64,000 nt of DNA from Pseudomonadota bacterium (GTDB taxonomy: Bacteria; Pseudomonadota; Alphaproteobacteria; Micavibrionales; Micavibrionaceae), in NCBI GenBank assembly GCA_963204825.1, contig CAUJHN010000153.1, positions 8,163-72,162 on the forward strand, given 5' to 3'. The notes beneath the pieces were generated by a model. That model searched no databases and had not been told where the DNA came from. It worked only from the letters and a program-made list of their open reading frames with translations. The stretch's first letter is position 1, and each line of letters starts with the position of its first letter. The position numbers and the translations under genes are program-made. Positions 25,614-41,472 of the stretch are shown in pieces.

Positions 25614-26096
25614 CTATTCCAGCTGTAGGCCATCCTTCGTAAACAATCCGATCTCTCGTTTGGTATGCCAATCTTTCAGCACGATCATAGGATGATTGCC
25701 ACGGCTCGTAATCCCATAAACGGTATCGAGCGTTGTTACCACCCTGCGCTTGTCGAGGCCGCCAAGACGATAGAACTGCGGACCGACAATGAGAACGGGC
25801 ACATCGGACTGATCCGTTTGTTCGCGCAGTATGTCAGCGCGGAAAAAACCATCGATGAGAGCGAAATTGTCCTTGTTCTGCGACAACCAGTCCTGCACAT
25901 ACCAGTCTTCGGACGCCCATTGCTGGTTCTGTGTGTCCTTACCCGTTTCAAGATGCGCGTTGAATTTTTTATAGCTGGTCCATGTCCAATGTCCGGGCCA
26001 CCAGCCGAACGGCCATAACTGTTCCGCCCTTGCCGAAGACGGCGCTGTAATCGCAGCCAAAATCACAAGACATATCAATATGTTAACTTTTTTCAT
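25614..26096 (-). CDS. Secreted Trp-rich hypothetical protein
   Basis: Signal peptide MKKVNILICLVILAAITAPSSARA. No family recognised. Confidence 0.55.
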   Translation of the reverse strand: MKKVNILICLVILAAITAPSSARAEQLWPFGWWPGHWTWTSYKKFNAHLETGKDTQNQQWASEDWYVQDWLSQNKDNFALIDGFFRADILREQTDQSDVPVLIVGPQFYRLGGLDKRRVVTTLDTVYGITSRGNHPMIVLKDWHTKREIGLFTKDGLQLE

Positions 26097-26163
26097 GTGC
26101 GGACCTTTTCGCGCATTCTATTTCTAAAACAACTATTAACGCAAATCATGGTACCCTAGAATT

Positions 26164-26565
26164 ATGATTGGTGCCATATCCAACGCTTTAACGGGTTTAT
26201 TTGCTGCTTCCAAACGCGTGGAGGCGAGCGCAAGCAATATCGCCAATGCCACAAGCGCCGGGTCGCTTGATCCCGGAAGCCCGTACCAGCCCTATGAAGC
26301 GCTGACCACCATTCAGACGGCAAATGGATCGGGCGGCACGCAGGCAACGAACATTCCCAAATCACCGGGTATCGTCAATGCCTATGCCCCCGATTCGCCA
26401 TTCGCAAATTCGGATGGGCTGGTTGGTGTGCCTAACACGGATTTGGCCGAAGACGCGGTCAACCTGAAAATCGCAGAGATTTCCTATAAAGCGAATCTGA
26501 AAGTGCTGAAAGTCGCAAACGAAATGTCGGATGCTCTGCTTGGCACTTTCGATAAACGTGTCTAA
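26164..26565 (+). CDS. Flagellar basal-body rod protein FlgC-like
   Basis: N-terminal rod motif RVEASASNIANATS, a central PGIVNAYAPDSPFANSDGLVGVPNTDL, and a C-terminal ISYKANLKVLKVANEMSDALL. These are collinear with FlgC proteins of about 135 aa. Confidence 0.65.
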   Translation: MIGAISNALTGLFAASKRVEASASNIANATSAGSLDPGSPYQPYEALTTIQTANGSGGTQATNIPKSPGIVNAYAPDSPFANSDGLVGVPNTDLAEDAVNLKIAEISYKANLKVLKVANEMSDALLGTFDKRV

Positions 26566-26750
26566 ATGCCTCACAGATTGACAATTATCAAATTTTGCAT
26601 TGTGCAATGCGTAATGCATTGACAGAGTTGCAGTATGCGCATAGCTTCAATCATAAGATGATTCATTTTATGCTTAATTAGTATTCGCTGTGCGCGTCGT
26701 ATCGGTAGAGCATTCGTTTTCCTTAATCCATTTTGAGACGAATTACATAA

Positions 26751-27368
26751 ATGAACACGATCTACAGACGGGGAGAATCTCTTCCCACGCCGCAATCCAA
26801 ACTCAACAAAATAAATGTCCTTGTCCTGGATGGCGGCGCGAAAGCCGCGGAATTGATCCGCGCCATTTTTGCCGAACTGGGGTTAAAAAATGTCTTTGTC
26901 GCCAACGATGGCTATCAGGGTGTGCAGGTTATGAAAGAAGTGCGCATCCATATGATATTCACCGATTGGGAGTTAAAACTTCGAAACAAGATCGAAGAAA
27001 TCAACACCGTGGCTAGCAAAAAATCAGAAGAGATAGTACCGCTGAACGGTCTTCATTTTGTTCAAAGTTTACGAAAATCAAGCCATTCCCCGAACCCGTT
27101 TATTCCTATCGTCATGATGATGGATGCGGCAAACAAAATGGAAGTGCTAAAGGCAAGGGATGCAGGCGTGAATGAAATTCTGTTACGCCCCATCGATGCC
27201 GAAGAATTTTGCAAACGCCTGATATCGATCATCGATCATCCACGCCTGTTTATCACGGCAGATACTTACAAAGGGCCATGCAGACGCCGCGCGCAAACAT
27301 CCCTTCCCCCAGAAATTCCGGAACGGCGTTTCAAAGAAATACGTGTCATAAAATCCATGGGAGCTTGA
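26751..27368 (+). CDS. CheY-like receiver protein with internal insertion, atypical active-site residues and a C-terminal GPxRRR tail
   Basis: VLVLDGG (single acidic residue), phospho-acceptor context IFTDWEL, a 20-aa or so insertion, IPIVMMM, and LLRPI in place of the K-P motif. The tail reads YKGPCRRRA. Confidence 0.65.
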   Translation: MNTIYRRGESLPTPQSKLNKINVLVLDGGAKAAELIRAIFAELGLKNVFVANDGYQGVQVMKEVRIHMIFTDWELKLRNKIEEINTVASKKSEEIVPLNGLHFVQSLRKSSHSPNPFIPIVMMMDAANKMEVLKARDAGVNEILLRPIDAEEFCKRLISIIDHPRLFITADTYKGPCRRRAQTSLPPEIPERRFKEIRVIKSMGA

Positions 27369-27369
27369 T

Positions 27370-27816
27370 ATGACAGAGTATATAACAGCCGTCGAAGCCG
27401 ACACGTCTTTAAAGAAAATCATCGGTGAAGAGGTCGACTTAAACAGGTTATTCTCCCCGGAAAAAATAAGCGCGTGTCAGAAAATTATCGATGATGCGCG
27501 CAATGAATTTTTTCAGAACGAGCTCCCAAAAGTAGAGATTATAAAAAAATTGATGCGGGATGATGAAACGAAAATAGACTATAAAGTCTCAGAAATCGTA
27601 AATGACATGCGAAGCCAGGCAAAGATATTTGGCTTTCCCTTCATAGTTCTTGCATGCACCCACATCCTGTCTTTTTACGATGACACAGCAAAACCGCTGG
27701 GAGTGAAGCACAAAATTATTTCGCGCTTTGTCGAAATTCTGCATATCGCCATAAAAAACAAGGTCCGGGATGAAGGCGGAGATTTAGAAAAAGAAATGGC
27801 GCGGCTTCTAAAATAA
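27370..27816 (+). CDS. Hypothetical helical protein, translationally coupled to the receiver gene
   Basis: Start 2 nt after the receiver stop (TGATATG). AT-rich. An HPt-like function is only a guess, and no clear HxxKG motif is present. Confidence 0.45.
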   Translation: MTEYITAVEADTSLKKIIGEEVDLNRLFSPEKISACQKIIDDARNEFFQNELPKVEIIKKLMRDDETKIDYKVSEIVNDMRSQAKIFGFPFIVLACTHILSFYDDTAKPLGVKHKIISRFVEILHIAIKNKVRDEGGDLEKEMARLLK

Positions 27817-27819
27817 AAC

Positions 27820-28839
27820 TTATTCCAAAACCAGTACAGTGCCTGCCATTCCGTCCATAGTGACCCAAAGTCTTTCTTTGGTGTTAGCGAAACGGAAGAA
27901 CGCATCACCTAAACCCGTACTACTAGGAATTCGCATTTCGCGCGCCACAGTGCAGGCGTGAGAAAGGACTCCGCCCTGTGCGAAAAGCAGAGCGTCGGCC
28001 TGGGCAAAATATTCCACGCTATCAGGCCTTGCCTGCGGAAAAAGCAGTATCAGAGAGGCATTATACATTGTTTTTAAAGCCTGAAGATCCGGCTTATCGG
28101 CAGAAAAATTCATAACCACAACAAGGCCCGTAACACACCCCGTGGACACTGGCAGTCCCTTCCAGAATCGCCGGTCTATAGGATCTTCACTCTGAATGGG
28201 TGGTGGCTGCATTGCTTCGTCATCCCAAAAGACGTCCGGCAGCGCTGCCACATCGGCGGTTTCTGCATTTCTATTTGAAAATAAAGCGAACCATACTGAT
28301 GAAATCTCTGTTCTTTCCATCTGGACCCGTTGTATCTGCTCAAGAATTTTACGAGCGGATTTAGGGGCAGGTTGTGGGTTTGCAAGCCATTGTGACAACA
28401 GCGCAGTGTTCCCTCCAAGGCGTATAAGAAGAAACTGCAAGACGAGACCGAGTGCCACGCTTTCAACCAGAGGTTCGGCGCGCGGCTTTTTTCTTTGCAA
28501 AAACTGTGTGACGCCCCACTGCGCCTTTAGCAGAGCTATTACATTTTTTAATTTATAGGAATAAACAAATGCATAAATATTCTTCGAATCCCGTATGGGA
28601 CGAAACGTGCCGCCGCCTACCGTTTCGATCATATGCGACCAGTTAAAATAAGGGACATTCTGATGCCAGCGTATAAGCGCTTCCGTTTTCAACGCAGGCA
28701 GACCAAGTGCGCCCAATGCCTGACACCATACTGATCCGGGTGTTACAGAAAAAATATCTTCAAGTCGCTTTTTATCTTCGTCGGAAAAAATGACGCCGGT
28801 AAAAACTTCATCGGGAATTTTGGACCAAAGCGTTTTCAT
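27820..28839 (-). CDS. Protein with C-terminal PEP-utilising-enzyme mobile (swivel phosphohistidine) domain
   Basis: The C-terminus GCVTGLVVV..., FAQGGVLSHACTVAREMRIPSSTGL matches the GG..SHAAIVARE.GIP signature of PEP-utilizer swivel domains. The N-terminal 230 aa or so is unassigned. Confidence 0.65.
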   Translation of the reverse strand: MKTLWSKIPDEVFTGVIFSDEDKKRLEDIFSVTPGSVWCQALGALGLPALKTEALIRWHQNVPYFNWSHMIETVGGGTFRPIRDSKNIYAFVYSYKLKNVIALLKAQWGVTQFLQRKKPRAEPLVESVALGLVLQFLLIRLGGNTALLSQWLANPQPAPKSARKILEQIQRVQMERTEISSVWFALFSNRNAETADVAALPDVFWDDEAMQPPPIQSEDPIDRRFWKGLPVSTGCVTGLVVVMNFSADKPDLQALKTMYNASLILLFPQARPDSVEYFAQADALLFAQGGVLSHACTVAREMRIPSSTGLGDAFFRFANTKERLWVTMDGMAGTVLVLE

Positions 28840-30242
28840 TGACCACGTATACCAAGACTATGAACTCCGGCATATGCTGTAATTTTATAGGCGCTCGCTA
28901 CATACACCATGTCATCACCGACGACGGGGGAGGAGTTCACGCCGGAACCCACCTGCCTGCGAACGAGCTCCTGCCCTGTCAAAGCATTGCGAATACTAAA
29001 AATCCCTTCGTAAGATGTCGTCGCTATCATAGGAATATCAAATCCATTTATAAGGACTGCTGGCGCGTGCAGTTCTTCGCCCGCTTTTTCATGCCATGCC
29101 GTCGAGCCGTCTTTCACGCGAAGCGCTAAAACGTCTCCGTTCTTGGCCGTATATATAACAAGGTCAGATTGGGGAATATAAACGGCCGGCGCTATCGGCG
29201 TGGTCGGCAAGACAACCTCCCACAATAATTTTCCTTCCGTGGAGACAGCCTGCGCCCAGCCCTGATCCGTGCCCTTATTCACTCCGATCTGTCCTATGCC
29301 TGTGGAGGTAAATATGATTTTTTTAGTTTCATCTATAACAGGCGAGCCCCATGGCTGACCTTTTTGCGGAATCTTCCATACTGTCTTTCCGTTTTTCGCA
29401 TCCAGCGCATGGAACGCCGTTATATGCACATTCTCATCGCTCTGCGCGGGCATATATAAAATATCGTCGTTCAAAAGAGGCTTTGAATCGATATGTCCCA
29501 ATGCCTGATGCCATCTCACATGACCAGTTCGCGCATCCAGCGCCCATATACCGCCGGGACCTGTTCCTACCCATACCATATTATGTTTGCGGTCCGGCGT
29601 CGCGGATTCTTCAATATGTCCCAGAAACTCCCTACGCCAGATAATTCTTCCATCTTCCGCATTAATGGCGCTTACGGACGAACTCTGATCGTAATGAAGC
29701 CCCTCGCCAGAGTAAATGATATCCCCCTCGCTTCCCAGCGATAGAACCGGCGCATTGTGCGGCAAAGACCACACACGCTGCCCATCGGCGAGGGAGACAG
29801 CTTCAACGCTATTGCCGTAGGCCCCATAGACGAGAACGCCACCAGCGATCAACGGCGTCGAAAAAACTTGGGTTTTTGTCTCTACGGACCATATTTCACC
29901 AAACTGCCTCAAATTAACGGGTAAAGGCTTTTGTGCTGTTGCAAAATAGACGGGCGTCGAATATTCCTTTTCCGGAATGGCCCGTGTGCCAGCCATCGCC
30001 GTCTCCTTGTTAGGCAAACGGTATATATAGACCGCTATAAAGCTTGCCAGACATAAAACGAAAACCGCAAGGAATGCCATTTTATATTTTTGCCAGAAGC
30101 TCGGAGTAAAAATTTTAGCCGCGCCTGTTACGCCCCCTAAAAGACCCAATAGGAGAGGAGCGACTTCTATAAACGGCAGAAACGCCGGAAAAAAATAAAA
30201 TGTGCCGGAATATCTAGAAGTAAATTTGGATCTGTTTTGCAT
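28836..30242 (-). CDS. Membrane-anchored PQQ-like beta-propeller repeat protein
   Basis: Two N-terminal TM segments followed by repeated ..G.V(Y/W)A.DA..G...W.. blades (ALDARTGHVRWH, ALDAKNGKTVWK, ALRVKDGSTAWH). Its stop overlaps the downstream start (ATGA). Confidence 0.7.
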   Translation of the reverse strand: MQNRSKFTSRYSGTFYFFPAFLPFIEVAPLLLGLLGGVTGAAKIFTPSFWQKYKMAFLAVFVLCLASFIAVYIYRLPNKETAMAGTRAIPEKEYSTPVYFATAQKPLPVNLRQFGEIWSVETKTQVFSTPLIAGGVLVYGAYGNSVEAVSLADGQRVWSLPHNAPVLSLGSEGDIIYSGEGLHYDQSSSVSAINAEDGRIIWRREFLGHIEESATPDRKHNMVWVGTGPGGIWALDARTGHVRWHQALGHIDSKPLLNDDILYMPAQSDENVHITAFHALDAKNGKTVWKIPQKGQPWGSPVIDETKKIIFTSTGIGQIGVNKGTDQGWAQAVSTEGKLLWEVVLPTTPIAPAVYIPQSDLVIYTAKNGDVLALRVKDGSTAWHEKAGEELHAPAVLINGFDIPMIATTSYEGIFSIRNALTGQELVRRQVGSGVNSSPVVGDDMVYVASAYKITAYAGVHSLGIRGQ

Positions 30243-30469
30243 GTATGTCCTGTTTAGCCTTTTGCATTAATTAAGACGGCCAACATCTAAAATCCTTGGA
30301 GCGCTTCTGACTAAATATAAAGATTAAATATTTTTTCTTTTATAATCAATGTCTTAATTACACAATCCACAACCGATCATATATCTCTTGGTCACGCTCA
30401 GCCTACTTCAGGTTCTCTTCAGCTTACAATTGCATTCTGAAACGGTCTTAACAAAGCACGGCAGTTTCA

Positions 30470-31168
30470 ATGTTGAATCTCGATTACCAGGAAAACGGAC
30501 AAACAACCGGCAGACTGTCGTTTAAAAACGGATTCCTGTTAAGAAGAATTAACAGTCGCCCTGCTATCGTTTCTATTCTTCCCGCCTTCGCCCGTGAACG
30601 CGCCGCGGTAGAAGATTTTATTACTGGCGTATATGCGGACGCCTATAATGCACAAATCGGCGTTCACTATCCAACCTTGATGAGCGTTCAGGACGAAAAC
30701 GGAAAAATTCTGGCGGCACTGGGTTTTCGCAATGCCGCCGATGAACCGCTATTTCTCGAACAGTATCTATCACATCCCGTAGACGAAATTCTCGATACTC
30801 CGCGCTCCTCCATCACGGAGATCGGGAATCTCGCCTCTGCAGGCGGGGGCGCATCGATGTATTTGTTCGCAGCCCTCGCCGCCTACCTCCATGACAAAGG
30901 GCAAAGCCACGCCGTTATAACAGGCACGAACTACATTGAAAAAAGACTCAGAACGCTAGGTCTCAAGCCCATAAGGCTTGCAAAGGCAAATCCTGCCCTG
31001 CTTTTGAAAAAAAATGAACACTGGGGGACCTATTACGAAACAGATCCTTATGTTATGAGCGGGCAGATTGCGCGAGGTTATGATCGCCTGCAAAAAGTCC
31101 TGGGTGCTACCTATACTCCGGAAAAAGCCAGACTCTTTTCCCGTCTGCATTACAGGTATCCCCTATGA
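30470..31168 (+). CDS. Thermostable-hemolysin family (T_hemolysin, GNAT-like acyltransferase fold) protein
   Basis: RERAAVEDFITGVYADAYNAQIGVHYPTLMSV..ILAALGFRNAADEPLFLEQYL..EIGNLAS..GTNYIEKRLRTLGL is collinear with the family. Confidence 0.7.
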   Translation: MLNLDYQENGQTTGRLSFKNGFLLRRINSRPAIVSILPAFARERAAVEDFITGVYADAYNAQIGVHYPTLMSVQDENGKILAALGFRNAADEPLFLEQYLSHPVDEILDTPRSSITEIGNLASAGGGASMYLFAALAAYLHDKGQSHAVITGTNYIEKRLRTLGLKPIRLAKANPALLLKKNEHWGTYYETDPYVMSGQIARGYDRLQKVLGATYTPEKARLFSRLHYRYPL

Positions 31169-32505
31169 GCATTCTATCCAGCATACTTGAACCGCACAGG
31201 CCGGATAAAGTCGCGCTGACTGAAGCGGGATATAAGCTTGATTATGGAGACCTGCCCAATCTCATAAAAAGCAGAGCCGAACGCCTTTCCCGTTACCACT
31301 GCGTTGCCCTGTCAATGAACAACGACATCGAATGGGTTTTATGGGATCTTGCAGGACTCGCTGCAAAAATTACGCTCGTACCCCTTCCCCCTTTCTTTAC
31401 CAAGGAACAGCGCGATCACGCGTTAAAGTCATCTGGCTGTGATGCGATCGTCACGCCTGACGGGCTTATCCCATTGCCGTATATGCCCATAACCTTAGCT
31501 GATGGCACGGCGAAAATAACATATACATCCGGCACTACAGGAACGCCCAAGGGCGTTTGCCTGTCAGAAGACGCGATGAGATTGGTTGCACAAAGCATTA
31601 TAGATGTTTTGGGACAGGATCTGGCTGACATACACGCGTGCGTTTTGCCACTTGGGGTTCTGTTAGAAAATGTAGCGGGTGTGTATGCAACGTTAATGGC
31701 GGGTGGAACAGTTCATCTGAATCGCCTTGAAAGTTTTGGTAAAAATTACGAACGCCTTCATGGCGCAATAAAAGAAAGTGGCGCAACGTCCATCATCCTC
31801 GTACCCGAGATGCTGCGGATATTGATGATGCAAGTGAGAGAGTCCGGCCCGCTTCCTTCCCTTAAATACGTCGCCGTGGGTGGATCAAAAGTTTCGCCTT
31901 CCCTGATATCGCAAGCGCGTGCGATGGGATTACCCGTGTATGAGGGCTACGGCCTGTCTGAATGCGCATCGGTCGTAGCCTTGAACACCCATAGCCAGAA
32001 TAAAGCTGGCACAGTCGGAAAGTTTCTGCCACATGTGCGCACCCGCATCGAAAACGGTGAAATCGTCCTGAAGAACACCGGGTTTTTAGGGTATGTGGGT
32101 GAAGCTCCCCCTTCCGTTATCCATACGGGTGATTTGGGCGAAATTGATGCGGAAGGTTTTGTTTCCATTACAGGACGGAAGAAGAACGTTCTTATCACGT
32201 CCTATGGCCGTAACGTCTCACCGGAATGGGTTGAATCCGAGCTGCTTTCCCAACCAGAAATCGCACAGGCAGTCGTTTACGGCGATGGGGAAAGCGCCCT
32301 CAGCGCTTACATAGCTCCTGCATTTCCCGCTGCGAATATTACAGAGGCCATTGCACAAGCAAACGCCCACCTCCCTGAATACGCCCACATTAAAAACTTT
32401 ACCCTTGTTCCTCCTTTTTCCCCTGAGGATGGAACACTTACCGGGACCGGCCGTCCCCGCCGGTCCCGGATCCTTCAACTTTACCAAAAGGAGAACATTC
32501 AATGA
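31165..32505 (+). CDS. AMP-dependent synthetase/ligase (adenylate-forming enzyme), short form
   Basis: Core motifs TYTSGTTGTPKGV, EGYGLSE, TGDLG and GRKKNVLITSYGRNVSP. ATGA overlap with the upstream gene. Confidence 0.88.
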   Translation: MSILSSILEPHRPDKVALTEAGYKLDYGDLPNLIKSRAERLSRYHCVALSMNNDIEWVLWDLAGLAAKITLVPLPPFFTKEQRDHALKSSGCDAIVTPDGLIPLPYMPITLADGTAKITYTSGTTGTPKGVCLSEDAMRLVAQSIIDVLGQDLADIHACVLPLGVLLENVAGVYATLMAGGTVHLNRLESFGKNYERLHGAIKESGATSIILVPEMLRILMMQVRESGPLPSLKYVAVGGSKVSPSLISQARAMGLPVYEGYGLSECASVVALNTHSQNKAGTVGKFLPHVRTRIENGEIVLKNTGFLGYVGEAPPSVIHTGDLGEIDAEGFVSITGRKKNVLITSYGRNVSPEWVESELLSQPEIAQAVVYGDGESALSAYIAPAFPAANITEAIAQANAHLPEYAHIKNFTLVPPFSPEDGTLTGTGRPRRSRILQLYQKENIQ

Positions 32506-33173
32506 CATTTTACGAACGCCTAAACAAAGAAACGGAAGTCATGCGCAAGGAATTATATTCCGTGCCGCAACTGATGGACGGCCTAAAAGGCAATATCAGC
32601 CGCGAAACATATATCGCCTATTTAACCCAGGCCTTCCATCACGTCCGTCATACCGTGCGGTTTTTGATGGCCATGGGCGTGCATCTGCCCGAAAGCAAAA
32701 AATGGCTACATGACGCCATTGCCGAATACATCGAAGAAGAAAAAGGCCACGAAGAGTGGATACTGAACGATATTTCAGCGGCGGGGGGCGATAAGGAAAG
32801 GGCACGTAATGCCACCCCAAACCTCGAAACTCAAGTCCTGGTCGCATATAACTACGATTACATCGCCCGGAAAAACCCAGTAGGTTTTCTCGGCATGGTT
32901 TTCATGCTGGAAAGCACATCCATACAGATAGCAAACAATGGAGCCGACGCTTTAAAAGCAAAACTCAACCTGCCTCAGACAGCCTTTACTTACCTCTATT
33001 CCCACGGCGCTCTGGATATTGAGCATATGAAATTCTTCGAGCAGCTTGTGAACAGAATCACAGATCCGGCCGACCAGGCAGCGATCATAGAAGTCGCACA
33101 AAATGCATTCCGCCTTTTCGCTAACGTTCTTCGCTCCATTCCTCACGTTCAGGAGATCAGACATGCGGCTTAG
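32502..33173 (+). CDS. Heme-oxygenase-like / TenA-like iron-containing redox enzyme family protein
   Basis: 223-aa protein that appears all-helical, with carboxylate/His pairs (EEEKGHEEW, ALDIEHMKFF) spaced as in heme-oxygenase-like diiron enzymes. ATGA overlap with the ligase gene. Confidence 0.6.
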   Translation: MTFYERLNKETEVMRKELYSVPQLMDGLKGNISRETYIAYLTQAFHHVRHTVRFLMAMGVHLPESKKWLHDAIAEYIEEEKGHEEWILNDISAAGGDKERARNATPNLETQVLVAYNYDYIARKNPVGFLGMVFMLESTSIQIANNGADALKAKLNLPQTAFTYLYSHGALDIEHMKFFEQLVNRITDPADQAAIIEVAQNAFRLFANVLRSIPHVQEIRHAA

Positions 33174-33939
33174 CGGAAAAAAAGTTTACATCACCGGCGG
33201 AACGGGCGGCATTGGGAAACCTCTTGTTTCTTTGCTTCGTCAGGCGGGCGCAGATGTAACAGTCTACGACATCGAAAAAGAGGGCGATCTCGTACAGAAC
33301 GTGGACAAGATCCGCGCATACCTGGAATCCAGCACTCCGGATATTTTGATCAATATGGCGGGATATAACGTGTTTGATTACTGCGAAAATCAGAATTTAC
33401 GGGCTATTATCGATCTCAATATGATGGTTCCCGTGCAGCTTTCGCAGGCCGTGCTGCGCGGCATGAAGCGTCGCGGTTCAGGCCATATCCTAAATATCGG
33501 TTCTATGACCGCTCTAATTCCATTGCCGCATTTAACAGGATACGTCACCGCCAAAGCTGGTTTGAAAGGTTTTTCTGACAGTCTGCGTAGAGAGCTTGGG
33601 GGTACGGACATTGCCGTAACATATATCGTGCCGCGTGCTGTAAAAACCGGCATGAATACGGGCGTACGCGCAGAAATCAATGAACGGACAAAAGTAACCT
33701 ATGATGACCCTATGAAGATTGCAGAGCGCATTTTTAGAGCCATCGCCAAACAGGAAAAAGAAGTGCGCATAGGATTCCCCGAACGTATCTTCGCCTTCAT
33801 CAATGCCATATGCCCCTCGGTTATCGACCAGGGGTTGCAGAAAAACCGCATAATCGGCGAACAACTTTTAGCTGAAACACAAAACTCCAAGGAGACCTAT
33901 AATGAAAAAACTGTATCTTCTCTCCGCGCTGCTCGTTAG
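33163..33939 (+). CDS. Short-chain dehydrogenase/reductase (SDR)
   Basis: TGGTGGIGK Rossmann motif, NMAG, and the S...YVTAK catalytic triad context. The start is at Met21 of the ORF (aggaga RBS) and overlaps the upstream gene by 11 nt. Confidence 0.88.
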   Translation: MRLSGKKVYITGGTGGIGKPLVSLLRQAGADVTVYDIEKEGDLVQNVDKIRAYLESSTPDILINMAGYNVFDYCENQNLRAIIDLNMMVPVQLSQAVLRGMKRRGSGHILNIGSMTALIPLPHLTGYVTAKAGLKGFSDSLRRELGGTDIAVTYIVPRAVKTGMNTGVRAEINERTKVTYDDPMKIAERIFRAIAKQEKEVRIGFPERIFAFINAICPSVIDQGLQKNRIIGEQLLAETQNSKETYNEKTVSSLRAAR

Positions 33940-34612
33940 TGCAGCTGCTCCTGCTTTTGCGCAACAAGCGCAGCCTGTAGCCATGCCGGCAGCGGGCGTC
34001 GCTGATCCCGTTTTGGAACAGATTGCACCCCTGCAAAGCGAATGGGCGCGGATCAAATATCAGGTAGCAGACAAAGAAGCAAAACTGACCGCTATTCACG
34101 CGCTCGAAGGGCAAGCGGCGCAAGTGACGGCTTCAAACCCCGCACGCGCCGAACCCAAAATATGGGAGGCTATTATCCTTTCGACGGACGCAGGTATTGT
34201 CAAAGGCATGTCCGCCTTGCCTAAAGTCAACAAAGCCAAAGAACTGCTGGAAACCGCAGAGAAGATAAATCCGAACGTTCTTGATGGCTCCGCTCATACA
34301 TCACTTGGATCTTTATACTATCAAGTGCCTGGCTGGCCTGTTGGCTTCGGCGACGATAAGAAGGCCGAAGAGCATCTGAAAATGGCCTTGCAGATTAATC
34401 CCGATGGTATTGATCCCAACTTTTTCTACGGCGATTTCCTTTTACAGGACGGACGGCTGGAAGAGGCAAAAACCTATCTGAGTCGTGCATTACAAGCAGC
34501 ACCCCGTCCTGGCCGTGAACTGGCGGATGCTGGTCGTAGGCAGGAAATCCAGGCTGCTCTTACTAAGATAGACCAGGAAGCAGCAAAAAAATCCAAAGGG
34601 CAGTTAAATTAG
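33902..34612 (+). CDS. Periplasmic TPR-like repeat protein
   Basis: Signal peptide MKKLYLLSALLVSAAAPAFA, followed by helical repeats (HLKMALQINPD.., YLSRALQAAPRPG). Confidence 0.6.
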   Translation: MKKLYLLSALLVSAAAPAFAQQAQPVAMPAAGVADPVLEQIAPLQSEWARIKYQVADKEAKLTAIHALEGQAAQVTASNPARAEPKIWEAIILSTDAGIVKGMSALPKVNKAKELLETAEKINPNVLDGSAHTSLGSLYYQVPGWPVGFGDDKKAEEHLKMALQINPDGIDPNFFYGDFLLQDGRLEEAKTYLSRALQAAPRPGRELADAGRRQEIQAALTKIDQEAAKKSKGQLN

Positions 34613-34620
34613 AAAAAACT

Positions 34621-35346
34621 ATGATTACAGTCGTCATCCCCGTTCATAACGAGCAAGAAAATGTCTCTGCCTTACTGGCGGAAATATACCAAGCGTCCCA
34701 GTCCGTGCCCATCAGCGAAGTTATCTATGTCGATGACGCCAGCACGGATGGGACGGCGGACATGCTTTCATCCTTAAGACAGACATATCCTTTTTTAAGG
34801 GTCATCCGGCATAGCATTAAATCCGGCCAATCGGCTGCATTCCTTACCGGGGTGAAAGCGGCCGGCAACAACATTATTGTGTTTATGGATGGGGACGGCC
34901 AAAACAACCCGGCAGACATCGAAAAACTCTATCAGTGCTATCAAGGCAAGAAAAGGCCGCAAATAAAAGTGATGGTCGCAGGCCAGAGAAAGATGCGGAA
35001 TGATAATCTTATACGGCGCCTATCATCCCGGATTGCCAACCGCATCCGTTCATTTATACTGAATGATAACATCCGCGACACCGGGTGTTCTCTAAAAATG
35101 ATTACGCGTGAAGACTATTTGACCTTGCCATTTTTTAATCATATGCACCGCTTCCTGCCGGCCCTTTTAAAACGGGATGGTGTGGAAATTCTAACTGTGG
35201 ATGTCTCACACAGATCACGCCTGCACGGCGTTTCAAAATACGGATTCTGGAACCGCCTGTGGGTAGGGATAGCGGACCTCGCAGGCGTTAGCTGGCTTCT
35301 TTCCAGAGCCAAACCAAAGAACCTCAGCATTCTGGAGATTTTATAA
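34621..35346 (+). CDS. GT2 polyprenyl-phosphate glycosyltransferase (ArnC/GtrB/DPM1-like)
   Basis: VVIPVHNEQENV, YVDDASTDGT and MDGDGQN (the DxD region), with C-terminal TM segments. Confidence 0.85.
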   Translation: MITVVIPVHNEQENVSALLAEIYQASQSVPISEVIYVDDASTDGTADMLSSLRQTYPFLRVIRHSIKSGQSAAFLTGVKAAGNNIIVFMDGDGQNNPADIEKLYQCYQGKKRPQIKVMVAGQRKMRNDNLIRRLSSRIANRIRSFILNDNIRDTGCSLKMITREDYLTLPFFNHMHRFLPALLKRDGVEILTVDVSHRSRLHGVSKYGFWNRLWVGIADLAGVSWLLSRAKPKNLSILEIL

Positions 35347-35630
35347 TGCCTTTAATTACCCACGAAACGCTTTGGCTTTCCATCGGCATGATTGGTCAGG
35401 CCATGTTTTCCATGCGCTTTGTCGTACAATGGATCGCTTCCGAAAAAGCAAAGAAGAGCATCATTCCAAATCTGTTTTGGTATTTCAGCATAGCGGGCGG
35501 CAGCCTGTTGCTCGCCTATTCTGTTTATCGCCAGGACCCCATTTTTATCTTGGGGCAGTCCATGGGGCTTTTCGTCTATTTGCGCAACTTATATCTCATA
35601 GTTTCGGATAAACATGCCGTATCTGCATAA
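35346..35630 (+). CDS. Lipid-A-biosynthesis N-terminal domain (LAB_N) small membrane protein
   Basis: WLSIGMIGQAMFSMRFVVQWIASEKAKKSIIPNLFWYFSIAGGSLLLAYSVYRQDPIFILGQ matches the LAB_N pattern. The start abuts the GT2 stop. Confidence 0.8.
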   Translation: MPLITHETLWLSIGMIGQAMFSMRFVVQWIASEKAKKSIIPNLFWYFSIAGGSLLLAYSVYRQDPIFILGQSMGLFVYLRNLYLIVSDKHAVSA

Positions 35631-36978
35631 GGGCCTTATTCCCTACAGCCTGCTTTTCCTCTTATTCATAGCCGCCGTTATTTTCCGTCCGCTCCTGCCG
35701 GTGGACGAAACACGCTATCTTACAGTTGCGTGGGAAATGTATCTGCAGAATAATTTTCTGAAACTCAGTCTGAATTTCGAACCATATCACCACAAGCCCC
35801 CCCTGCTCTTTTGGCTGATTAACATTTCATGGCATATTTTCGGTGTTTCAAGGGAAGCCGCCATGGTCCCTATATTTCTCGCAAGCGCTGCCACGCTGGC
35901 CTTAACCCGTTACCTTACAAAGATGACTTTTGGGGAAAAGGCCGCCGCGGTTTCTTCCTATATTCTTTTGGGCAGCATCCCTTTTATCGCCTATAGCACC
36001 ATGATCATGTTTGATATGACCGTGACGGCTTTTATCCTGTGCTATCACATTTGCTTGATTAAAAACGCCCAGAACCCAAAGCCGATGTTACCGGTCTTGT
36101 CCGGGCTTGCCCTGGGATTTGCAATCCTTGCAAAGGGGCCTGTTGCCTTTGTGTATATATTAGGACCGGTCATTTTCTATTCTTTCTGGCGAAAAGACAG
36201 CTATATCGTGCCTGCTGCGTTTTACCGGGCATTCGCGATATCCCTCGTCGTGGCCATTCTCCCCGTTCTGGCCTGGCTAGCCCCGCTCGCCGTTCAATCC
36301 GATCAGAAATTTCTATGGTGGCTCTTGTGGGAACAATCGGCAGGCCGCGTAACCGGAAACTTCAATGCGGCTCATGCACGCCCCTTTTATTTCTACTTTC
36401 TTTTAATCCCGCTGATCATCTTGCCCTGGGGCTTCTTTCCCAAAGTATGGCGCTCTTTTAAACTGGAAGAAAGAGAGACCAGATTTCTGATTGCTGCCAT
36501 CCTGCCCGCGTTTCTGGCGTTTTCATGCATCTCCGGAAAACAGCCTCATTATCTGGCCCCCCTTATTCCCTATGTCACCATGGCCTTTGCATCTGCCCTG
36601 CCGACATTTGAAAGATCTGTCCGTGCCACAGCGCTTGCAATGACAGGCCTCTTTCTTATCGGGCACGCCATAGGCTACGCATACCTTTTTCCAGAATATG
36701 ACCTTCGCCCTTACGCGGCGTATTACAGGCAACATGCGGACAAGGAGTGGGCCTTTGTACAAAACTACCAGGGCGAAATTGGCTTCCTGGCGAGAGTCGA
36801 AAAACCTATATCCAATATAGACAGAACGGATATGTCCAATTGGATGAAATCCCACCCGGACGGTTACGCACTCGTTAGGTATAAGGGACGTGAAGCTTAT
36901 TTAGATGGGCAGGAGCCGCTCTTTTCCTATCCGTACCGTGGAAAGAGACTGGGCGTTTTCCATTACAATAAAGAGTGA
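35614..36978 (+). CDS. ArnT/PMT_2-type GT-C glycosyltransferase (polyprenyl-phosphate-sugar dependent)
   Basis: The N-terminal loop LPVDETRYLTVAWEM..EPYHHKPPLLFWL is typical of the ArnT/PMT family. At least 10 TM segments. Confidence 0.85.
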   Translation: MPYLHKGLIPYSLLFLLFIAAVIFRPLLPVDETRYLTVAWEMYLQNNFLKLSLNFEPYHHKPPLLFWLINISWHIFGVSREAAMVPIFLASAATLALTRYLTKMTFGEKAAAVSSYILLGSIPFIAYSTMIMFDMTVTAFILCYHICLIKNAQNPKPMLPVLSGLALGFAILAKGPVAFVYILGPVIFYSFWRKDSYIVPAAFYRAFAISLVVAILPVLAWLAPLAVQSDQKFLWWLLWEQSAGRVTGNFNAAHARPFYFYFLLIPLIILPWGFFPKVWRSFKLEERETRFLIAAILPAFLAFSCISGKQPHYLAPLIPYVTMAFASALPTFERSVRATALAMTGLFLIGHAIGYAYLFPEYDLRPYAAYYRQHADKEWAFVQNYQGEIGFLARVEKPISNIDRTDMSNWMKSHPDGYALVRYKGREAYLDGQEPLFSYPYRGKRLGVFHYNKE

Positions 36979-36989
36979 TAGGGTAGACC

Positions 36990-37646
36990 ATGCGCCTGCT
37001 CCTGGTAGAAGATGACAAGAATTTAGGTAAAGCAACCGCAGAAGGACTGAAAGAATCCTTCGCCGTTGACTGGGTGCGAAGCGCCGAAGAAGCGGAAGAG
37101 GCCACCGCCATGGTAAAATACGACCTTATGGTACTAGATATCAATCTTCCGGAAAAATCGGGCCTGGATCTCCTTAAAGACTTGCGCAAGAAGGCAAACC
37201 CGATACCCGTTCTGCTCCTGACCGCCCGCGACGCCATTTATCACCGCGTGGAAGGCTTGAATGCCGGCGCAGACGATTACCTTGTAAAACCGTTCGATCT
37301 CGACGAACTTCTGGCCCGCTGCTCCGCGCTTGTGCGCCGCGCGCAAAGCCAGGGGCAGCCAGTGATTTCCATTCTCGATCTTTCCTATGAACCGGCCACA
37401 GGCAAATTGGAAAGAGATGGAAAGAGCATCCTTTTATCCGCCAAGGAGCGAGCCATATTTGATGTTCTGGCGCATAATATTGATCGCCCGGTCAGCAAGG
37501 CGTTGATTGAAGAGCGCATTTACGACTGGGGCTCCGAAGAAATTGAAAGCAACACGATTGAAGTCCATATAGCAGGGCTGCGCCGAAAAATTGGCAGGGA
37601 CTACATAAAAACCATTCGCGGCGTAGGATATATGATTTGCAAATGA
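36990..37646 (+). CDS. OmpR/PhoB-family response regulator (PmrA/QseB-like)
   Basis: MRLLLVEDD, LMVLDINLP, VLLLTAR and LVKPF, plus a winged-helix C-terminus (IRGVGYMI). Confidence 0.92.
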   Translation: MRLLLVEDDKNLGKATAEGLKESFAVDWVRSAEEAEEATAMVKYDLMVLDINLPEKSGLDLLKDLRKKANPIPVLLLTARDAIYHRVEGLNAGADDYLVKPFDLDELLARCSALVRRAQSQGQPVISILDLSYEPATGKLERDGKSILLSAKERAIFDVLAHNIDRPVSKALIEERIYDWGSEEIESNTIEVHIAGLRRKIGRDYIKTIRGVGYMICK

Positions 37647-38983
37647 GTTCAAAAAAATACTCCCTCAAGAAACGCATTCTTCTTTGGATCAGCATACCCG
37701 TGCTGATTTCTTCTATTTTGATTTTGCTTCTGGCTTTTCTTTTTTCCTGGCACGAAATTGAAGAAGTTTATGACGCGCAAATGGTACACACCGCAAAAAC
37801 GCTTTTGCAACTTACTGAGCACGAGATCGAGGAAAATGAAGAAGTGAATATTTCGTTGGGCGCAGAAAACCCCAACTTAAAACACCACTATGAAAACAAG
37901 ACGACGTTCAGGGTATGGAAAGGCGATCGTCTTGTCCTGCAGTCCCACCGCGCAAAGGATTTTGGCGATATCCAAGCCCCGCCCGGTTTTTCCAACCAGA
38001 CAGTCAAAGAAAAGCCCTGGCGCTTCTTTGTTTTCATCGATACCGAAAAAAATATTAAAATAGAGACGGCAGAACGTTACGCTATACGGTACGAATTGAT
38101 CGGCCAATTGATGCTGAGCCTGATTATTCCAATGGCAATTCTTATTCCACTCCTGCTCTTTATTGTCTGGCTAGGCATACGGCAGAGCATCGCGCCGCTT
38201 ACCACATTATCCGCGGCCGTTGATACCCGGGAAATCGACGACCTTGATCCGATACAAAGTTATAAAATACCTCTTGAAATCAGCCCTCTCGTTGAGGCCC
38301 TGAACAGGCTTTTCTTAAGAATTGGCGATAGCTTCAAGAGAGAGCGAGAATTCACCGACCATGCAGCGCATGAGCTGCGAACCCCTCTGGCGGCCATGAA
38401 GACCCAGACCCAGGTGTTGATCAAAAAGGCTTCTTCAATGCCCGACTGTCAGGAAGGCCTGGAAAACCTGAACGCCACGATAGACAGAAGTGCACACCTT
38501 ATAGAACAACTATTATCCCTCGCGCGGCTGCAAAATGAATCTCTGCAGATGGAACCCGTTGATTTGTCTGAATGCATACTGGACGCGCTTGGAGAAATCA
38601 CCCGGGCGGCTAACCTTAAAAATCAAACGCTGCATGTAGATATCAGTCGCAACGTTATTATTTCGGGGCAAAAAAATTCCCTGTTCATGATGATCCGTAA
38701 TCTTTTGGATAACGCCGTGAAATATACGCCCGAAAACGGAAAAATAGACATATCGCTCAATAAAGAAGGGCTGTTCACCATTGCAGACAACGGCCCCGGC
38801 ATCTCCGATAATGATAAAAAGCGTGTGTTCAACAGATTCGTGCGCAGCGATAAAACAGGACAAAATGGCAGCGGACTGGGCCTGTCCATAGTGCAGTGGG
38901 TTGCCGATACGCACAGAGCGAATATCACCTTATCCGATAACGCGCCTCAGGGATTAATAGTCACTGTGAGCTTCAGGCGATGA
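37637..38983 (+). CDS. Sensor histidine kinase (PmrB/QseC-like)
   Basis: Two TM segments flank a periplasmic loop. H-box FTDHAAHELRTPLAAM, N-box LLDNAVKYT, and G-boxes DNGPGI and GSGLGLSIV. The start may be the ATG at 43, which gives an ATGA overlap. Confidence 0.92.
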   Translation: MQMSSKKYSLKKRILLWISIPVLISSILILLLAFLFSWHEIEEVYDAQMVHTAKTLLQLTEHEIEENEEVNISLGAENPNLKHHYENKTTFRVWKGDRLVLQSHRAKDFGDIQAPPGFSNQTVKEKPWRFFVFIDTEKNIKIETAERYAIRYELIGQLMLSLIIPMAILIPLLLFIVWLGIRQSIAPLTTLSAAVDTREIDDLDPIQSYKIPLEISPLVEALNRLFLRIGDSFKREREFTDHAAHELRTPLAAMKTQTQVLIKKASSMPDCQEGLENLNATIDRSAHLIEQLLSLARLQNESLQMEPVDLSECILDALGEITRAANLKNQTLHVDISRNVIISGQKNSLFMMIRNLLDNAVKYTPENGKIDISLNKEGLFTIADNGPGISDNDKKRVFNRFVRSDKTGQNGSGLGLSIVQWVADTHRANITLSDNAPQGLIVTVSFRR

Positions 38984-39354
38984 GATACTTCGCTATTCTC
39001 TCGGCATTTCTGGGACTTGCTTCCGTTATCGTCGGCGCTGCCGGAGATCATATGCTAGCGGGTGGCCTTACACCGCAAACGGCCCACATATATGAAACGG
39101 CTCTGCGATATCATCAGCTATACGCCATCCTGATTATATGCCTTTCCCTTTATGGAAGCCCTACGCGACTTTATAAGGGCGCCCTTTTCGCTTTCACGCT
39201 CGGCCTGTGTTTATTCAGCGGAAGCCTGTATGCCAGCGTTCTGTTCCACTTGCCCGGCCTGACAAGGCTTACCCCGTTCGGCGGCACCGCTTTGATGATG
39301 GGATGGTGTTTATTGATTGCCCATTTAGTAAGGCAAAGGCCTGCAAAGCTATAA
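38980..39354 (+). CDS. DUF423 (YgdD-like) small membrane protein
   Basis: Four TM segments, with GAAGDHML and ALRYHQLYAI motifs typical of DUF423. ATGA overlap with the kinase gene. Confidence 0.7.
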   Translation: MRYFAILSAFLGLASVIVGAAGDHMLAGGLTPQTAHIYETALRYHQLYAILIICLSLYGSPTRLYKGALFAFTLGLCLFSGSLYASVLFHLPGLTRLTPFGGTALMMGWCLLIAHLVRQRPAKL

Positions 39355-39376
39355 AATAGGGAAATATTGGGGTGAA

Positions 39377-39451
39377 TGGTGCCGGCAGAGAGGATTGAAC
39401 TCCCGACCTTCGGTTTACAAAACCGCTGCACTACCGCTGTGCTATGCCGGC
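39377..39451 (-). tRNA. tRNA-Thr (anticodon UGU)
   Basis: The reverse complement GCCGGCATAGCACAGCGGTAGTGCAGCGGTTTTGTAAACCGAAGGTCGGGAGTTCAATCCTCTCTGCCGGCACCA folds as a cloverleaf. It has a GCCGGCA/TGCCGGC acceptor stem, a GCAC/GTGC D stem, anticodon loop UUUGUAA, a short variable loop and an encoded CCA. Confidence 0.9.
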
Positions 39452-39690
39452 CCTAGAACATCTTTATTAACCATAATATTCATTGGTTAACAATAATGTC
39501 ATAAACCACGGCTTCATGGGGACATTCCCCGCCGTGTGAGGGATGTGTAACAAAAAAATGCCCTCCAACCTAGCTTTTTTTTAACCGGCGGCGCCTTACG
39601 TTATTTTTTGTAAAAATCGATGAATTTCTGTTAAATTAGAAGCGGATAACAAATCAAGCGCATTGCTTCTGAAAACAGCAATAGGAAATC

Positions 39691-40896: not shown

Positions 40897-40902
40897 GCAG
40901 GT

Positions 40903-41472
40903 ATGGCAAGCGCGATGAAACAACTCTGGAACAAAGATTCAAACGATTACCAGTCTTCGGCAAAAGTTGTAGATGGCAATCTCATCCTTTCCCTGCCCGA
41001 TGCAATCAATCCGGTTGTATGGCGCATGGAGCTTGGAAGCGTCAAGGCCTCCGCCCTGGAAGTACGGGGGGCCGAAGACGGCACCTTCTTACTGATTTTA
41101 AAAACGCCAAAAGGCGAAGTGCATGAAATCGCGCCTTTTGCGGCGCGTGATATGGCTGTGCATGCGCTCATGCGCGTTTCCACAGCGCTGCAAAACGCCG
41201 AAGGCAAAATCGCACCCGCAGGCACGCACAATGTTCAGCCTGCCTCAATACCGCAAGAAAAAAGCAGAACATCGCGCAAATGGCTGATTGCCCTCGGCTT
41301 CGTTCTTCTCATTATATTTTTAATGGCATGGGGCGGAAGCAAAGTCCATGTAACGGACCCGAATGGAAACCCTGAAGCCACGCTGCAAACAGAACCTTCC
41401 GACGGGGAGACAGGGGCAGAGGCGCCGAATGGCGTTCCAATGTCCGCCGACGAAATGTTGAAAGGGTTTTAA
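40903..41472 (+). CDS. Hypothetical single-pass membrane protein in the DotM/DotL-like operon
   Basis: 189 aa: a soluble N-domain, a TM segment WLIALGFVLLIIFLMAWGG, and an acidic tail. The gaps are 6 nt upstream and 5 nt downstream. Confidence 0.6.
   Translation: MASAMKQLWNKDSNDYQSSAKVVDGNLILSLPDAINPVVWRMELGSVKASALEVRGAEDGTFLLILKTPKGEVHEIAPFAARDMAVHALMRVSTALQNAEGKIAPAGTHNVQPASIPQEKSRTSRKWLIALGFVLLIIFLMAWGGSKVHVTDPNGNPEATLQTEPSDGETGAEAPNGVPMSADEMLKGF

Follow-up and report, generated by a model that had tools for sequence, protein, structure and literature searches.

The question raised by positions 30470–33939 of a 64,000-nucleotide (nt) stretch of contig CAUJHN010000153.1 from a Micavibrionaceae bacterium (GenBank assembly GCA_963204825.1; this stretch is hereafter termed the window) is what a set of four tightly packed genes makes, and whether the set ends where it first appears to end. 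An earlier reading of the letters alone (the original prediction) had described the four open reading frames (ORFs) as a putative small-molecule cluster of a T_hemolysin-type acyltransferase, an adenylating enzyme, a heme-oxygenase-like protein and a short-chain dehydrogenase/reductase (SDR). The analysis presented here makes it somewhat more probable than otherwise that these ORFs are the enzyme core of a conserved operon under PmrA/QseB-type control, making an amphiphilic acyl metabolite that reaches the cell envelope. The enzymes are of known kinds in an undescribed combination, and the operon is a widespread orphan.

All four ORFs are present on the same strand in the ORF list with overlaps of 4, 4 and 11 nt, as first described, and they form a translationally coupled, co-transcribable set coding for a LuxI/FeeM-fold acyltransferase, a ligase, a dimetal oxidase and an SDR. 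The motifs quoted at the outset (TYTSGTTGTPKGV, GYGLSE, TGDLG, EKGH, DIEH, TGGTGGIGK and TGTGRPRR) were all located in the translations. The fourth ORF spans 33103–33939 and contains a conserved internal ATG at 33163 that gives a protein of 258 amino acids (aa); since the 11-nt overlap between the third and fourth genes recurs in the gene calls of relatives (L003, L005, L007 and L008), 33163 is the likely start. The coupled genes were thus real, but the boundary set at 33939 did not hold, as seven further genes, each overlapping its predecessor or separated from it by at most 11 nt, continue the array to 39354. The four-gene description had left out a secreted tetratricopeptide repeat (TPR) protein, whose gene overlaps the SDR gene by 38 nt, a two-component system of PmrA/QseB-PmrB/QseC type and a PmrA-type box upstream of the first gene (Table 1).

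The conservation of the arrangement was examined by scanning a single genome for each species. The third gene product, a heme-oxygenase-like dimetal oxidase (HDO), served as anchor because it is far better conserved than the T_hemolysin protein. The scan returned at least 600 matching stretches, 598 of them confirmed by tblastn, and 80 loci were analysed. These span Alpha-, Beta- and Gammaproteobacteria and include Micavibrio, Thalassospira, Thiothrix, Amphritea, Polynucleobacter, Halopseudomonas, Pseudomonas, Rheinheimera, Methylophaga, Microbulbifer, Colwellia, Zoogloea, Caulobacter, Brevundimonas and Parvibaculum. Neighbours were counted as same-strand homologues of window proteins within 6 kilobases (kb) of the HDO gene, using only loci with sufficient flank. 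On this basis the single pathway first proposed is matched by co-conservation of its four genes across three proteobacterial classes, with T_hemolysin beside HDO in 72/72 loci, the ligase in 76/76 and the SDR in 77/77, followed by the TPR protein (70/74), the response regulator (60/72) and the histidine kinase (58/69). The order of the four genes was maintained in every related locus with enough flank, the full conserved order being T_hemolysin–ligase–HDO–SDR–TPR–regulator–kinase; this pattern, with an optional PEMT gene after T_hemolysin, was also seen in the contexts of distant homologues. This arrangement is far beyond chance. Closer examination revealed that ligase and HDO are fused into a single polypeptide in 11 of the 80 loci and also in Micavibrio aeruginosavorus and one further lineage (an ENA/NCBI contig and a Logan contig), the fusions in the distant contexts measuring 668–714 aa and that of M. 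aeruginosavorus 668 aa. Plasmid copies in Pantoea deleyi and Vibrio parahaemolyticus consist of five genes, TPR included, with no adjacent two-component system, and a Pseudoalteromonas carrageenovora plasmid carries all seven genes followed by cupredoxin and iron-transporter genes. Recurrent accessories among the 80 loci were an FTR1 permease (23 loci), a cupredoxin (18) and an EptA-type phosphoethanolamine transferase (8).

Table 1. Genes of the co-directional array and the direct repeat preceding it, in window coordinates.
Feature	Position	Strand	Profile evidence or remark
PmrA-box-type direct repeat CTTCAG-GTTCT-CTTCAG	30406..30422	+	48 nt before first start codon; proposed site for the operon's own regulator
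T_hemolysin-family protein, 232 aa, predicted cytoplasmic acyltransferase with LuxI/FeeM-like GNAT fold	30470..31168	+	PF12261 1.5e-47
ANL-superfamily adenylating ligase, 446 aa, Arg at A10 Lys position	31165..32505	+	PF00501 4.2e-48, with AMP-binding_C_3
Heme-oxygenase-like dimetal oxidase/oxygenase (HDO), 223 aa	32502..33173	+	PF14518 1.2e-27
Classical SDR, 258 aa	33163..33939	+	PF00106 1.7e-31
Secreted TPR protein, 236 aa, signal peptide, no lipobox; proposed periplasmic binder/handler of the product	33902..34612	+	TPR_19 and other TPR families
GT2 polyprenyl-phosphate glycosyltransferase, ArnC-like; lineage-specific accessory	34621..35346	+	PF00535 1.5e-26
Small membrane protein with LAB_N (lipid A biosynthesis N-terminal) domain; accessory	35346..35630	+	PF07578 6e-34
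ArnT-like GT-C glycosyltransferase (PMT_2); accessory	35614..36978	+	PF13231 5.5e-14
OmpR-family response regulator, PmrA/QseB-like	36990..37646	+	Best NCBIfam models PmrA, QseB
Sensor histidine kinase, QseC/PmrB-like, two transmembrane segments, periplasmic loop of ~120 aa	37637..38983	+	NCBIfam QseC, PmrB
DUF423 membrane protein; accessory, last gene of the coupled array	38980..39354	+	PF04241 1.3e-16; overlaps kinase stop by 4 nt

The assignment of the first gene product to the T_hemolysin family was supported by a Pfam profile search, in which PF12261 scored 162 bits against a cutoff of 27 over profile positions 6–173 of 174. This was its sole Pfam match, neither Autoind_synth nor a FeeM-type family being reached, and no NCBIfam model matched it. 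The protein has neither a signal peptide nor a transmembrane segment, and its family comprises ~1,600 clusters at 50% identity. An AlphaFold2 (AF2) model computed from a 43-sequence alignment (predicted local distance difference test, pLDDT, 88.9) showed the GNAT-like alpha/beta fold of LuxI/FeeM synthases, with 6wns MesI, 3p2h/3p2f TofI, 1ro5 LasI, 5w8a BjaI and 2g0b FeeM as top Foldseek matches in PDB (E values 6e-8 to 2e-5) and ordinary GNAT N-acyltransferases ranking after these N-acyl-homoserine lactone (AHL) synthases and FeeM. The model thus backs the GNAT/LuxI-like acyltransferase reading given in the original prediction. Like the predicted T_hemolysin enzyme, LuxI-type AHL synthases and FeeM are small cytoplasmic GNAT-like enzymes, and they acylate an amine with the acyl group of a thioester; for the coenzyme A (CoA)-dependent AHL synthases (BjaI, RpaI and MesI) the acyl donor has to come from a CoA ligase, and here the ligase gene is translationally coupled to the T_hemolysin gene. 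The T_hemolysin protein differs from LuxI/FeeM in having no detectable sequence similarity to them and an invariant residue set of its own (G85, E97, R112, E117, G119, W185, G186 and Y188 across 43 diverse members), and its regulator partner is a two-component system, as opposed to LuxR for LuxI-type synthases. A putative motif-A-like GxGA loop following the central strand would fit CoA binding. The name “hemolysin” most likely stems from a product that acts on membranes and not from the protein being a toxin itself, in which case the hemolysis historically reported for Escherichia coli clones would be product-mediated; other N-acyltransferases have been annotated as hemolysins for the same reason.

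A variant of the pair was found on Streptomyces sp. ITFR-16 plasmid pSITFR-16a (L091, 6950–10135), where overlapping T_hemolysin and AMP-binding genes are followed by a TauD/TfdA Fe/2-oxoglutarate dioxygenase gene in the place of HDO, in surroundings that hold ketosynthase (KS), KSIII, ester cyclase, aldo/keto reductase, flavin adenine dinucleotide (FAD) oxidoreductase and MFS genes. This looks like a non-orthologous oxygenase replacement in a polyketide-type cluster.

For the second gene product, the proposed assignment to the adenylating enzymes found support in the Pfam search through PF00501 together with AMP-binding_C_3. The ANL core motifs A3 (TYTSGTTGTPKGV), A5 (GYGLSE), A7 (TGDLG) and the A8 hinge (GRKKNVLITSYGRNVSP) are present and are conserved in 80 orthologues. 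A tentative remark that TGTGRPRR stands where the A10 lysine would be expected proved correct, as TGTGR aligns over TSTGK of Staphylococcus aureus MenE (3ipl), placing R430 at the Lys. At least 90% of the 80 orthologues keep the motif T-x-x-G-R-x-[KR]-R, so that Arg replaces the A10 Lys family-wide. None of the named CoA-ligase equivalogs was reached, the best being MenE (TIGR01923, 155 bits vs a cutoff of 330) with the others further below their cutoffs, and the nearest solved relatives were oxalyl-CoA synthetase, MenE, fatty-acid CoA ligases and MatB (~86 bits).

The heme-oxygenase-like assignment of the third gene product was likewise borne out by profile search, with 97 bits to PF14518 Haem_oxygenas_2 against a cutoff of 28.9 and weaker matches to Heme_oxygenase and TENA. 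The original prediction had suggested modelling this protein for a diiron site; the AF2 model is all-helical (pLDDT 89.8) with a heme-oxygenase-like fold, matching 3DDE and CADD in Foldseek at template modelling (TM) scores of 0.81–0.84 (0.83 for 3DDE, 0.82–0.84 for CADD), and sequence alignment showed the six canonical metal-ligand positions to be invariant. Specifically, E79/E80, H83, E137, H168, D172 and H175 occupy these positions in 29 sequences sharing 50–100% identity, in agreement with the published ligand scheme of an E and an H on core helix 1, an E on core helix 2 and HxxxDxxH on core helix 3 (PMC13133933), and they align to E142/H174/D178/H181 of CADD and to the E-x-x-H pair of 3DDE and MboA. 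The HDO therefore shares with CADD, MboA, AetD, UndA, BesC, SznF and RohS the family fold and the six ligand positions, including HxxxDxxH on core helix 3, its first Glu/His pair being ExxH-like as in MboA and 3DDE, whereas CADD has Ex6H. In profile comparisons with solved proteins the best match was 3DDE (5.5e-25), followed by CADD (~3e-4), MboA (0.013) and AetD (~0.8), so that the closest relative is the uncharacterised Sden_3740 (3DDE) and no enzyme of known reaction. A self-sacrificing para-aminobenzoate synthase of CADD type was considered and rejected, with TIGR04305 scoring 42 bits vs 200 and the positions of Tyr27 and Lys152 being taken by L24 and G147. An invariant HHxxH (H46, H47, H50) lies on helix 34–61, which contains no invariant Glu; this helix corresponds, by position counting only, to the one bearing the seventh Glu ligand in SznF/RohS.

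HDO orthologues keep at least 50% identity across the three proteobacterial classes and bear the public names “biliverdin-producing heme oxygenase”, “pyrroloquinoline quinone biosynthesis protein C” (also “PQQ biosynthesis protein C”) and “long-chain acyl-CoA synthetase”, the last of which probably spread from the ligase::HDO fusion proteins. We know of no precedent for an HDO fused to an ANL ligase.

The fourth gene product matched PF00106 (adh_short) in the Pfam search, supporting the SDR assignment, and qualifies as a classical SDR by its TGxxxGxG motif and N-S-Y-K residues. TGGTGGIG, NMAG, GS and YVTAK are present, with TGxxGGxG, N-AG, GS and YxxxK conserved in 78 orthologues, and the nearest solved relatives are FabG enzymes. 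The TPR protein is the fifth constant member, its orthologues carrying N-terminal signal peptides and the invariant motifs GSxxTSLGxLYxxVPGWPxxFG, NPxGIDxN and RxxADxGR, and its gene remains with the enzyme genes even where the two-component system is missing, as on the Pantoea and V. parahaemolyticus plasmids. Its profile matched the sterol-binding BstC (7t1s) over 88 residues (E value 2.4e-8, 36.5 bits), and this periplasmic Methylococcus protein was the only natural solved protein matched over a long stretch. The two are similar in size and both secreted; membership of the BstC equivalog was not reached, at 38.5 bits vs an NCBIfam cutoff of 350, and there are no BstA/BstB partners at the operon.

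The control of the operon is indicated by a direct repeat, CTTCAGGTTCTCTTCAG, of the form CTTCAG-N5-CTTCAG, the sole such site in the window. Its geometry of two hexamers at 5-bp spacing is that of the PmrA box, experimentally defined as CTTAAG-N5-xTTAAT (PMC3973317) and described in a further report as standing in place of the -35 element (PMC10570014). Among 72 loci, NTT[AC]A[GT]-N5-NTT[AC]A[GT] was found at -130 to -10 of the first gene in 45, against ~0.4 expected from a background of 0.005 per 120 nt. The half-site is CTTCAG in Micavibrio-like Alphaproteobacteria, in distinction from the CTTAAG/T of described PmrA regulons, and CTTAAG, CTTAAT or GTTAAT in Gamma- and Betaproteobacteria; upstream of the V. 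parahaemolyticus plasmid copy, which has no two-component system of its own, there is also a perfect CTTAAG-N5-CTTAAT. The best NCBIfam models were PmrA (206 bits vs a cutoff of 330) and QseB (195 vs 345) for the regulator, and QseC (266 vs 475) and PmrB (195 vs 314) for the kinase, so that PmrAB/QseBC orthology by equivalog cutoffs was not reached although these were the top-scoring models. Likeness to PmrAB (BasRS)/QseBC regulons thus extends over the top-scoring regulator and kinase models, the geometry of the repeat and the EptA and ArnT-like genes nearby, and the predicted PmrA-type transcriptional control of the operon is well supported by sequence. The two-component genes come after the effector genes in one predicted transcript, as in Pseudomonas aeruginosa PA4773-PA4775-pmrAB, where polyamine (small-molecule) biosynthesis genes precede pmrAB in the same operon; no PmrA regulon described so far has equivalents of the effector enzymes encoded here. 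Scans for consensus promoters and terminators performed no better than on shuffled sequence.

Two further observations concern the regulatory proteins. The recognition helix of the regulator (residues ~190–198) reads EVHIAGLRRK in loci with CTTCAG boxes and EVHI[H/N]... in those with CTTAAG boxes, a pattern that may represent protein–DNA co-variation and is fully confounded with phylogeny. The kinase has W-H-E-x-x-E after its first transmembrane segment (residues ~36–46), as do 28 of 65 orthologues, and the motif is missing from most gammaproteobacterial ones.

Taken together, these features suggest the following course of events for an operon directed at the envelope. The QseC/PmrB-like kinase would sense a periplasmic cue, perhaps a metal or an envelope signal, and the phosphorylated regulator would bind CTTCAG-N5-CTTCAG in place of the -35 element and drive the whole array 30470–39354, its own genes included. 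In the cytoplasm the ligase would activate a carboxylic acid to the acyl-adenylate and probably on to the acyl-CoA, from which the T_hemolysin protein may transfer the acyl group to an amine-bearing acceptor, yielding an amphiphilic N-acyl compound. The HDO would carry out an O2-dependent oxidation next to the ligase step, the ligase::HDO fusions suggesting that it acts immediately before or after the ligase, and the SDR a keto/hydroxyl redox step that adjusts a carbonyl on the acid or on the conjugate. The product would then leave the cytoplasm, and in the periplasm the secreted TPR protein would bind it or hand it on; finally it would act as a constituent or modifier of the envelope, the same transcript here also carrying the ArnC/ArnT-like glycosyltransferase set. 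The physiological role is the least certain part of this account: the PmrA-type wiring and the EptA/ArnT-like neighbours favour an envelope effector, the FTR1 and cupredoxin neighbours favour a link to iron, and the LuxI-like fold together with a periplasmic protein and a kinase makes a signalling circuit possible.

Several results weigh against the proposed envelope-directed acyl metabolite. The ligase lacks the invariant A10 lysine that is normally required for adenylation, and a fatty acyl substrate is not implied, since the closest solved ligase relatives take small or dicarboxylic acids as well as fatty acids. The T_hemolysin sequence, used singly or as a 43-sequence profile, found no match among sequences of solved structures, so that its fold assignment comes from AF2 and Foldseek only, and the fold match is moderate, with TM scores of 0.5–0.72 (0.72 on the TofI target) at 11–16% identity. 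The similarity of the TPR protein to BstC is weak and partly a generic TPR signal, and neither a carrier protein nor an exporter or flippase was conserved with the cluster among the recurrent neighbours. The strict box is absent from 27 of the 72 loci, and binding of the regulator to it is proposed from sequence only. Finally, the FTR1 association fits an iron-related role at least as well as one in envelope lipids.

The best surviving alternative, which we nevertheless regard as unlikely, is a quorum-sensing-like self-signal, in which the T_hemolysin protein, ligase, HDO and SDR would make a diffusible autoinducer and the TPR protein would be a LuxP-analogous periplasmic receptor acting through the QseC-like kinase on the box to give auto-induction. 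Such a scheme would account for the best structural matches of the T_hemolysin protein being AHL synthases, including CoA-dependent ones relying on a CoA ligase, for the adjacency and co-orientation of synthase genes, periplasmic protein and two-component system in most loci, and for the positive-feedback wiring created by a box ahead of the synthase genes, and for a kinase scoring best against QseC; the want of a dedicated transporter conserved with the cluster would fit a product crossing the membrane unaided. It is harder to reconcile with the persistence of the five genes, TPR included, without an adjacent two-component system on the Pantoea and V. parahaemolyticus plasmids, which links the TPR protein with the product and not with the kinase. 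Moreover, Pfam Autoind_synth was not matched, the regulator and box are PmrA-type, and the accessories EptA, ArnT-like and FTR1 are envelope and iron effectors, as is typical where a regulon answers to stress and not to quorum sensing. Should a circuit of this kind exist, a prospect given the same low probability, it would be a new class of bacterial cell–cell or envelope signal, combining a LuxI-fold synthase, a ligase-coupled dimetal oxidase, a dedicated secreted TPR receptor, a QseC-like kinase and auto-induction through a PmrA-type box, and at least several hundred species of proteobacteria would have it.

An iron- or metal-directed metabolite is rather improbable. Here the HDO would N-oxygenate an amine and the T_hemolysin protein acylate the resulting hydroxylamine with the ligase-activated acid, giving a hydroxamate-type, possibly lipidic, chelator or redox compound that works in the periplasm with the TPR protein and feeds, or protects against, the iron handled by FTR1 and cupredoxin, with the kinase sensing metal. 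FTR1 and cupredoxin genes directly follow the kinase gene in many Gammaproteobacteria, the P. carrageenovora plasmid included, and the enterobacterial and Vibrio copies have a VIT-family protein and cytochrome b561 at their flanks, but the iron genes are missing from alphaproteobacterial loci, this window among them. No TonB-dependent receptor, siderophore exporter, nonribosomal peptide synthetase (NRPS) or NRPS-independent siderophore (NIS) synthetase gene was conserved among the recurrent neighbours, which weakens the case for a siderophore cluster, and FTR1 systems import free iron, not chelates. The HxxxDxxH of the HDO is common to the N-oxygenases SznF and RohS (PMC13133933), but HHxxH stands on the helix where these carry the seventh Glu ligand, as judged by position counting only. 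The Fe(III)-sensing motif of PmrB is HExxE, which the kinase W-H-E-x-x-E resembles; the motif was rejected as proof of iron sensing, as it coincides in part with the generic 2CSK_N “EELFDxQL” motif and 37 of the 65 kinases lack it.

Direct modification of envelope lipids is less credible still. In Vibrio cholerae, AlmEFG provides a precedent in which a ligase and an acyltransferase stand under a PmrAB-like system, and by analogy a small acid or amino acid activated by the ligase, with the donor prepared by HDO and SDR, would be moved by the T_hemolysin protein onto lipid A or a phospholipid. PmrA-type control, the co-located lipid A-modifying genes and the small or dicarboxylic acids used by the nearest solved relatives of the ligase would all accord with this, but an AlmF-like carrier protein is lacking, the T_hemolysin protein is free of transmembrane segments and not related to the AlmG/LpxL family, and Alm-type systems contain nothing that corresponds to the conserved secreted TPR protein. 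A genuine protein hemolysin or virulence cluster, as current annotation and Gobet et al. 2018 (“potential virulence cluster”; PMC6262041) would have it and as the origin of the family name in hemolytic E. coli clones with Vibrio delta-VPH/dth genes (cited in PMC12208996) might suggest, is very improbable given a product without signal peptide or secretion system, with a GNAT/LuxI-type enzyme fold and invariant catalytic-looking residues (E97, R112, E117), whose gene is always coupled to metabolic enzymes and widespread in free-living aquatic, methylotrophic and predatory bacteria.

The earlier statement that no characterised product exists for this gene combination held, as none was found in the literature on the family names, locus tags or PmrA/QseB, and no curated model assigns one; ligase, HDO and SDR score only below curated NCBIfam cutoffs, and their RefSeq (PGAP) names are generic. 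The cluster itself had already been noticed twice. In V. cholerae, VCA1111 (delta-thermostable hemolysin) lies beside the ligase VCA1110 “DthC” in the dth region (PMC12208996), which contains the same gene families as here. Gobet et al. 2018 described on the P. carrageenovora plasmid a cluster with QseBC, an iron transporter, two “long-chain acyl-CoA synthetases” and a thermostable hemolysin, and found it in 24 Pseudoalteromonas genomes (PMC6262041). The order in PCAR9_p0005-p0014 is the same (thermostable hemolysin, ligase, HDO, SDR, TPR, regulator, kinase, cupredoxin, iron transporter), the HDO apparently being the second gene annotated as long-chain acyl-CoA synthetase, and the Micavibrio-type locus has ArnC/ArnT-like genes where the Pseudoalteromonas cluster has those for the iron transporter. 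Both reports regard the first gene as a toxin or virulence factor and give no enzymatic function, product or regulatory site.

If the operon does make an envelope-directed acyl metabolite, PF12261 (delta-VPH/Dth), called a hemolysin or virulence factor for 30 years, would be a LuxI/FeeM-like acyltransferase with its product as the membrane-active agent, and virulence-gene screens in Vibrio, Aeromonas and Pseudoalteromonas would need reinterpretation. The operon would also be a conserved and previously unrecognised output of PmrA/QseB-type envelope/metal signalling, beside EptA, ArnT-like or FTR1 genes, and its product may bear on tolerance to polymyxin and cationic peptides or on iron handling. 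HDOs have repeatedly yielded new oxidative chemistry, and the present one represents a large, tractable orphan clade with a defined pathway context. Culturable hosts with the operon include V. cholerae (VCA1108-1111), Pseudoalteromonas, Halopseudomonas, Thalassospira and Pantoea.

In addition to the constant genes, the array contains members with a much narrower distribution. The ArnC-like, LAB_N and ArnT-like genes were considered as core members and rejected as lineage-specific accessories, being on the same strand in only 2 of the 80 loci (L016 and L017), and DUF423 occurs in 6. ArnC/ArnT-like sets were found here and in L016, L017 and L008, the LAB_N gene travels with the GT2 and ArnT-like genes, and in M. 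aeruginosavorus the GT2 gene is divergent from the cluster. Neither glycosyltransferase is an orthologue by NCBIfam cutoffs (NF007986 for ArnC, 78 bits vs 529; NF009784 for ArnT, 80 vs 567), and no homologues of ArnA, ArnB or ArnD lie within the operon; EptA and ArnC/ArnT-like accessories are typical of PmrA regulons.

Genes for a cupredoxin-like protein, an FTR1 iron permease and a conserved protein without assigned function come after the kinase gene, on the same strand, in many Gammaproteobacteria (L092, 8462–10255; L048, 14183–14632; L087, 14417–15292), which suggests that an iron uptake module is under the control of the two-component system there as well. Genes of cytochrome b561 type adjoin the five-gene operon on the P. 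deleyi and V. parahaemolyticus plasmids (L089, 8340–8924; L090, 8230–8778), and in Pantoea a VIT-family iron transporter gene follows the TPR gene; these neighbours could reflect a redox or iron link, or coincidence. Lineage-specific methyltransferases were also found in the cluster (L003, 10706–11308; L005, 14326–14955), one lineage having a membrane PEMT/ICMT-type enzyme between T_hemolysin and ligase and another a class I S-adenosylmethionine-dependent methyltransferase after TPR. These suggest optional methylation of the product; the insertion of a PEMT/ICMT-type membrane enzyme points to a lipidic one, and the inserted methyltransferase together with the Streptomyces TauD/TfdA exchange fits small-molecule biosynthesis with a swappable oxygenase.

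Beyond the array, no riboswitch or other Rfam element was detected in 26000–41000 besides one tRNA gene. On the upstream side, a divergent coupled pair at 27820–30242 (-) codes for a membrane-anchored PQQ_2/BamB-like beta-propeller protein (468 aa) and a 339-aa protein in which Pfam recognises only a PEP-utiliser mobile (swivelling phosphohistidine) domain at the C terminus; this pair was ruled out as part of the operon, co-occurring with the cluster in 0 of the 80 loci. Between it and two EamA transporter genes lie three small ORFs at 26164–27816 (+). Their products are a protein of 133 aa in which a flagellar rod C-terminal motif is weakly matched, an orphan receiver-domain protein of 205 aa and, from a coupled ORF, a protein of 148 aa that no Pfam family matches. 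On the downstream side, the co-directional array ends at the tRNA gene at 39380–39451 (-) (RF00005, 66.5 bits), which stands immediately next to DUF423. Just beyond the operon, in what looks to be a predatory alphaproteobacterium of Micavibrio type, and followed by an ORF at 40903–41472 without a Pfam match, a gene at 39691–40896 (+) encodes a homologue of DotM/IcmP, a component of the type IVB secretion coupling complex (PF23127 DotM_C, 2e-49).

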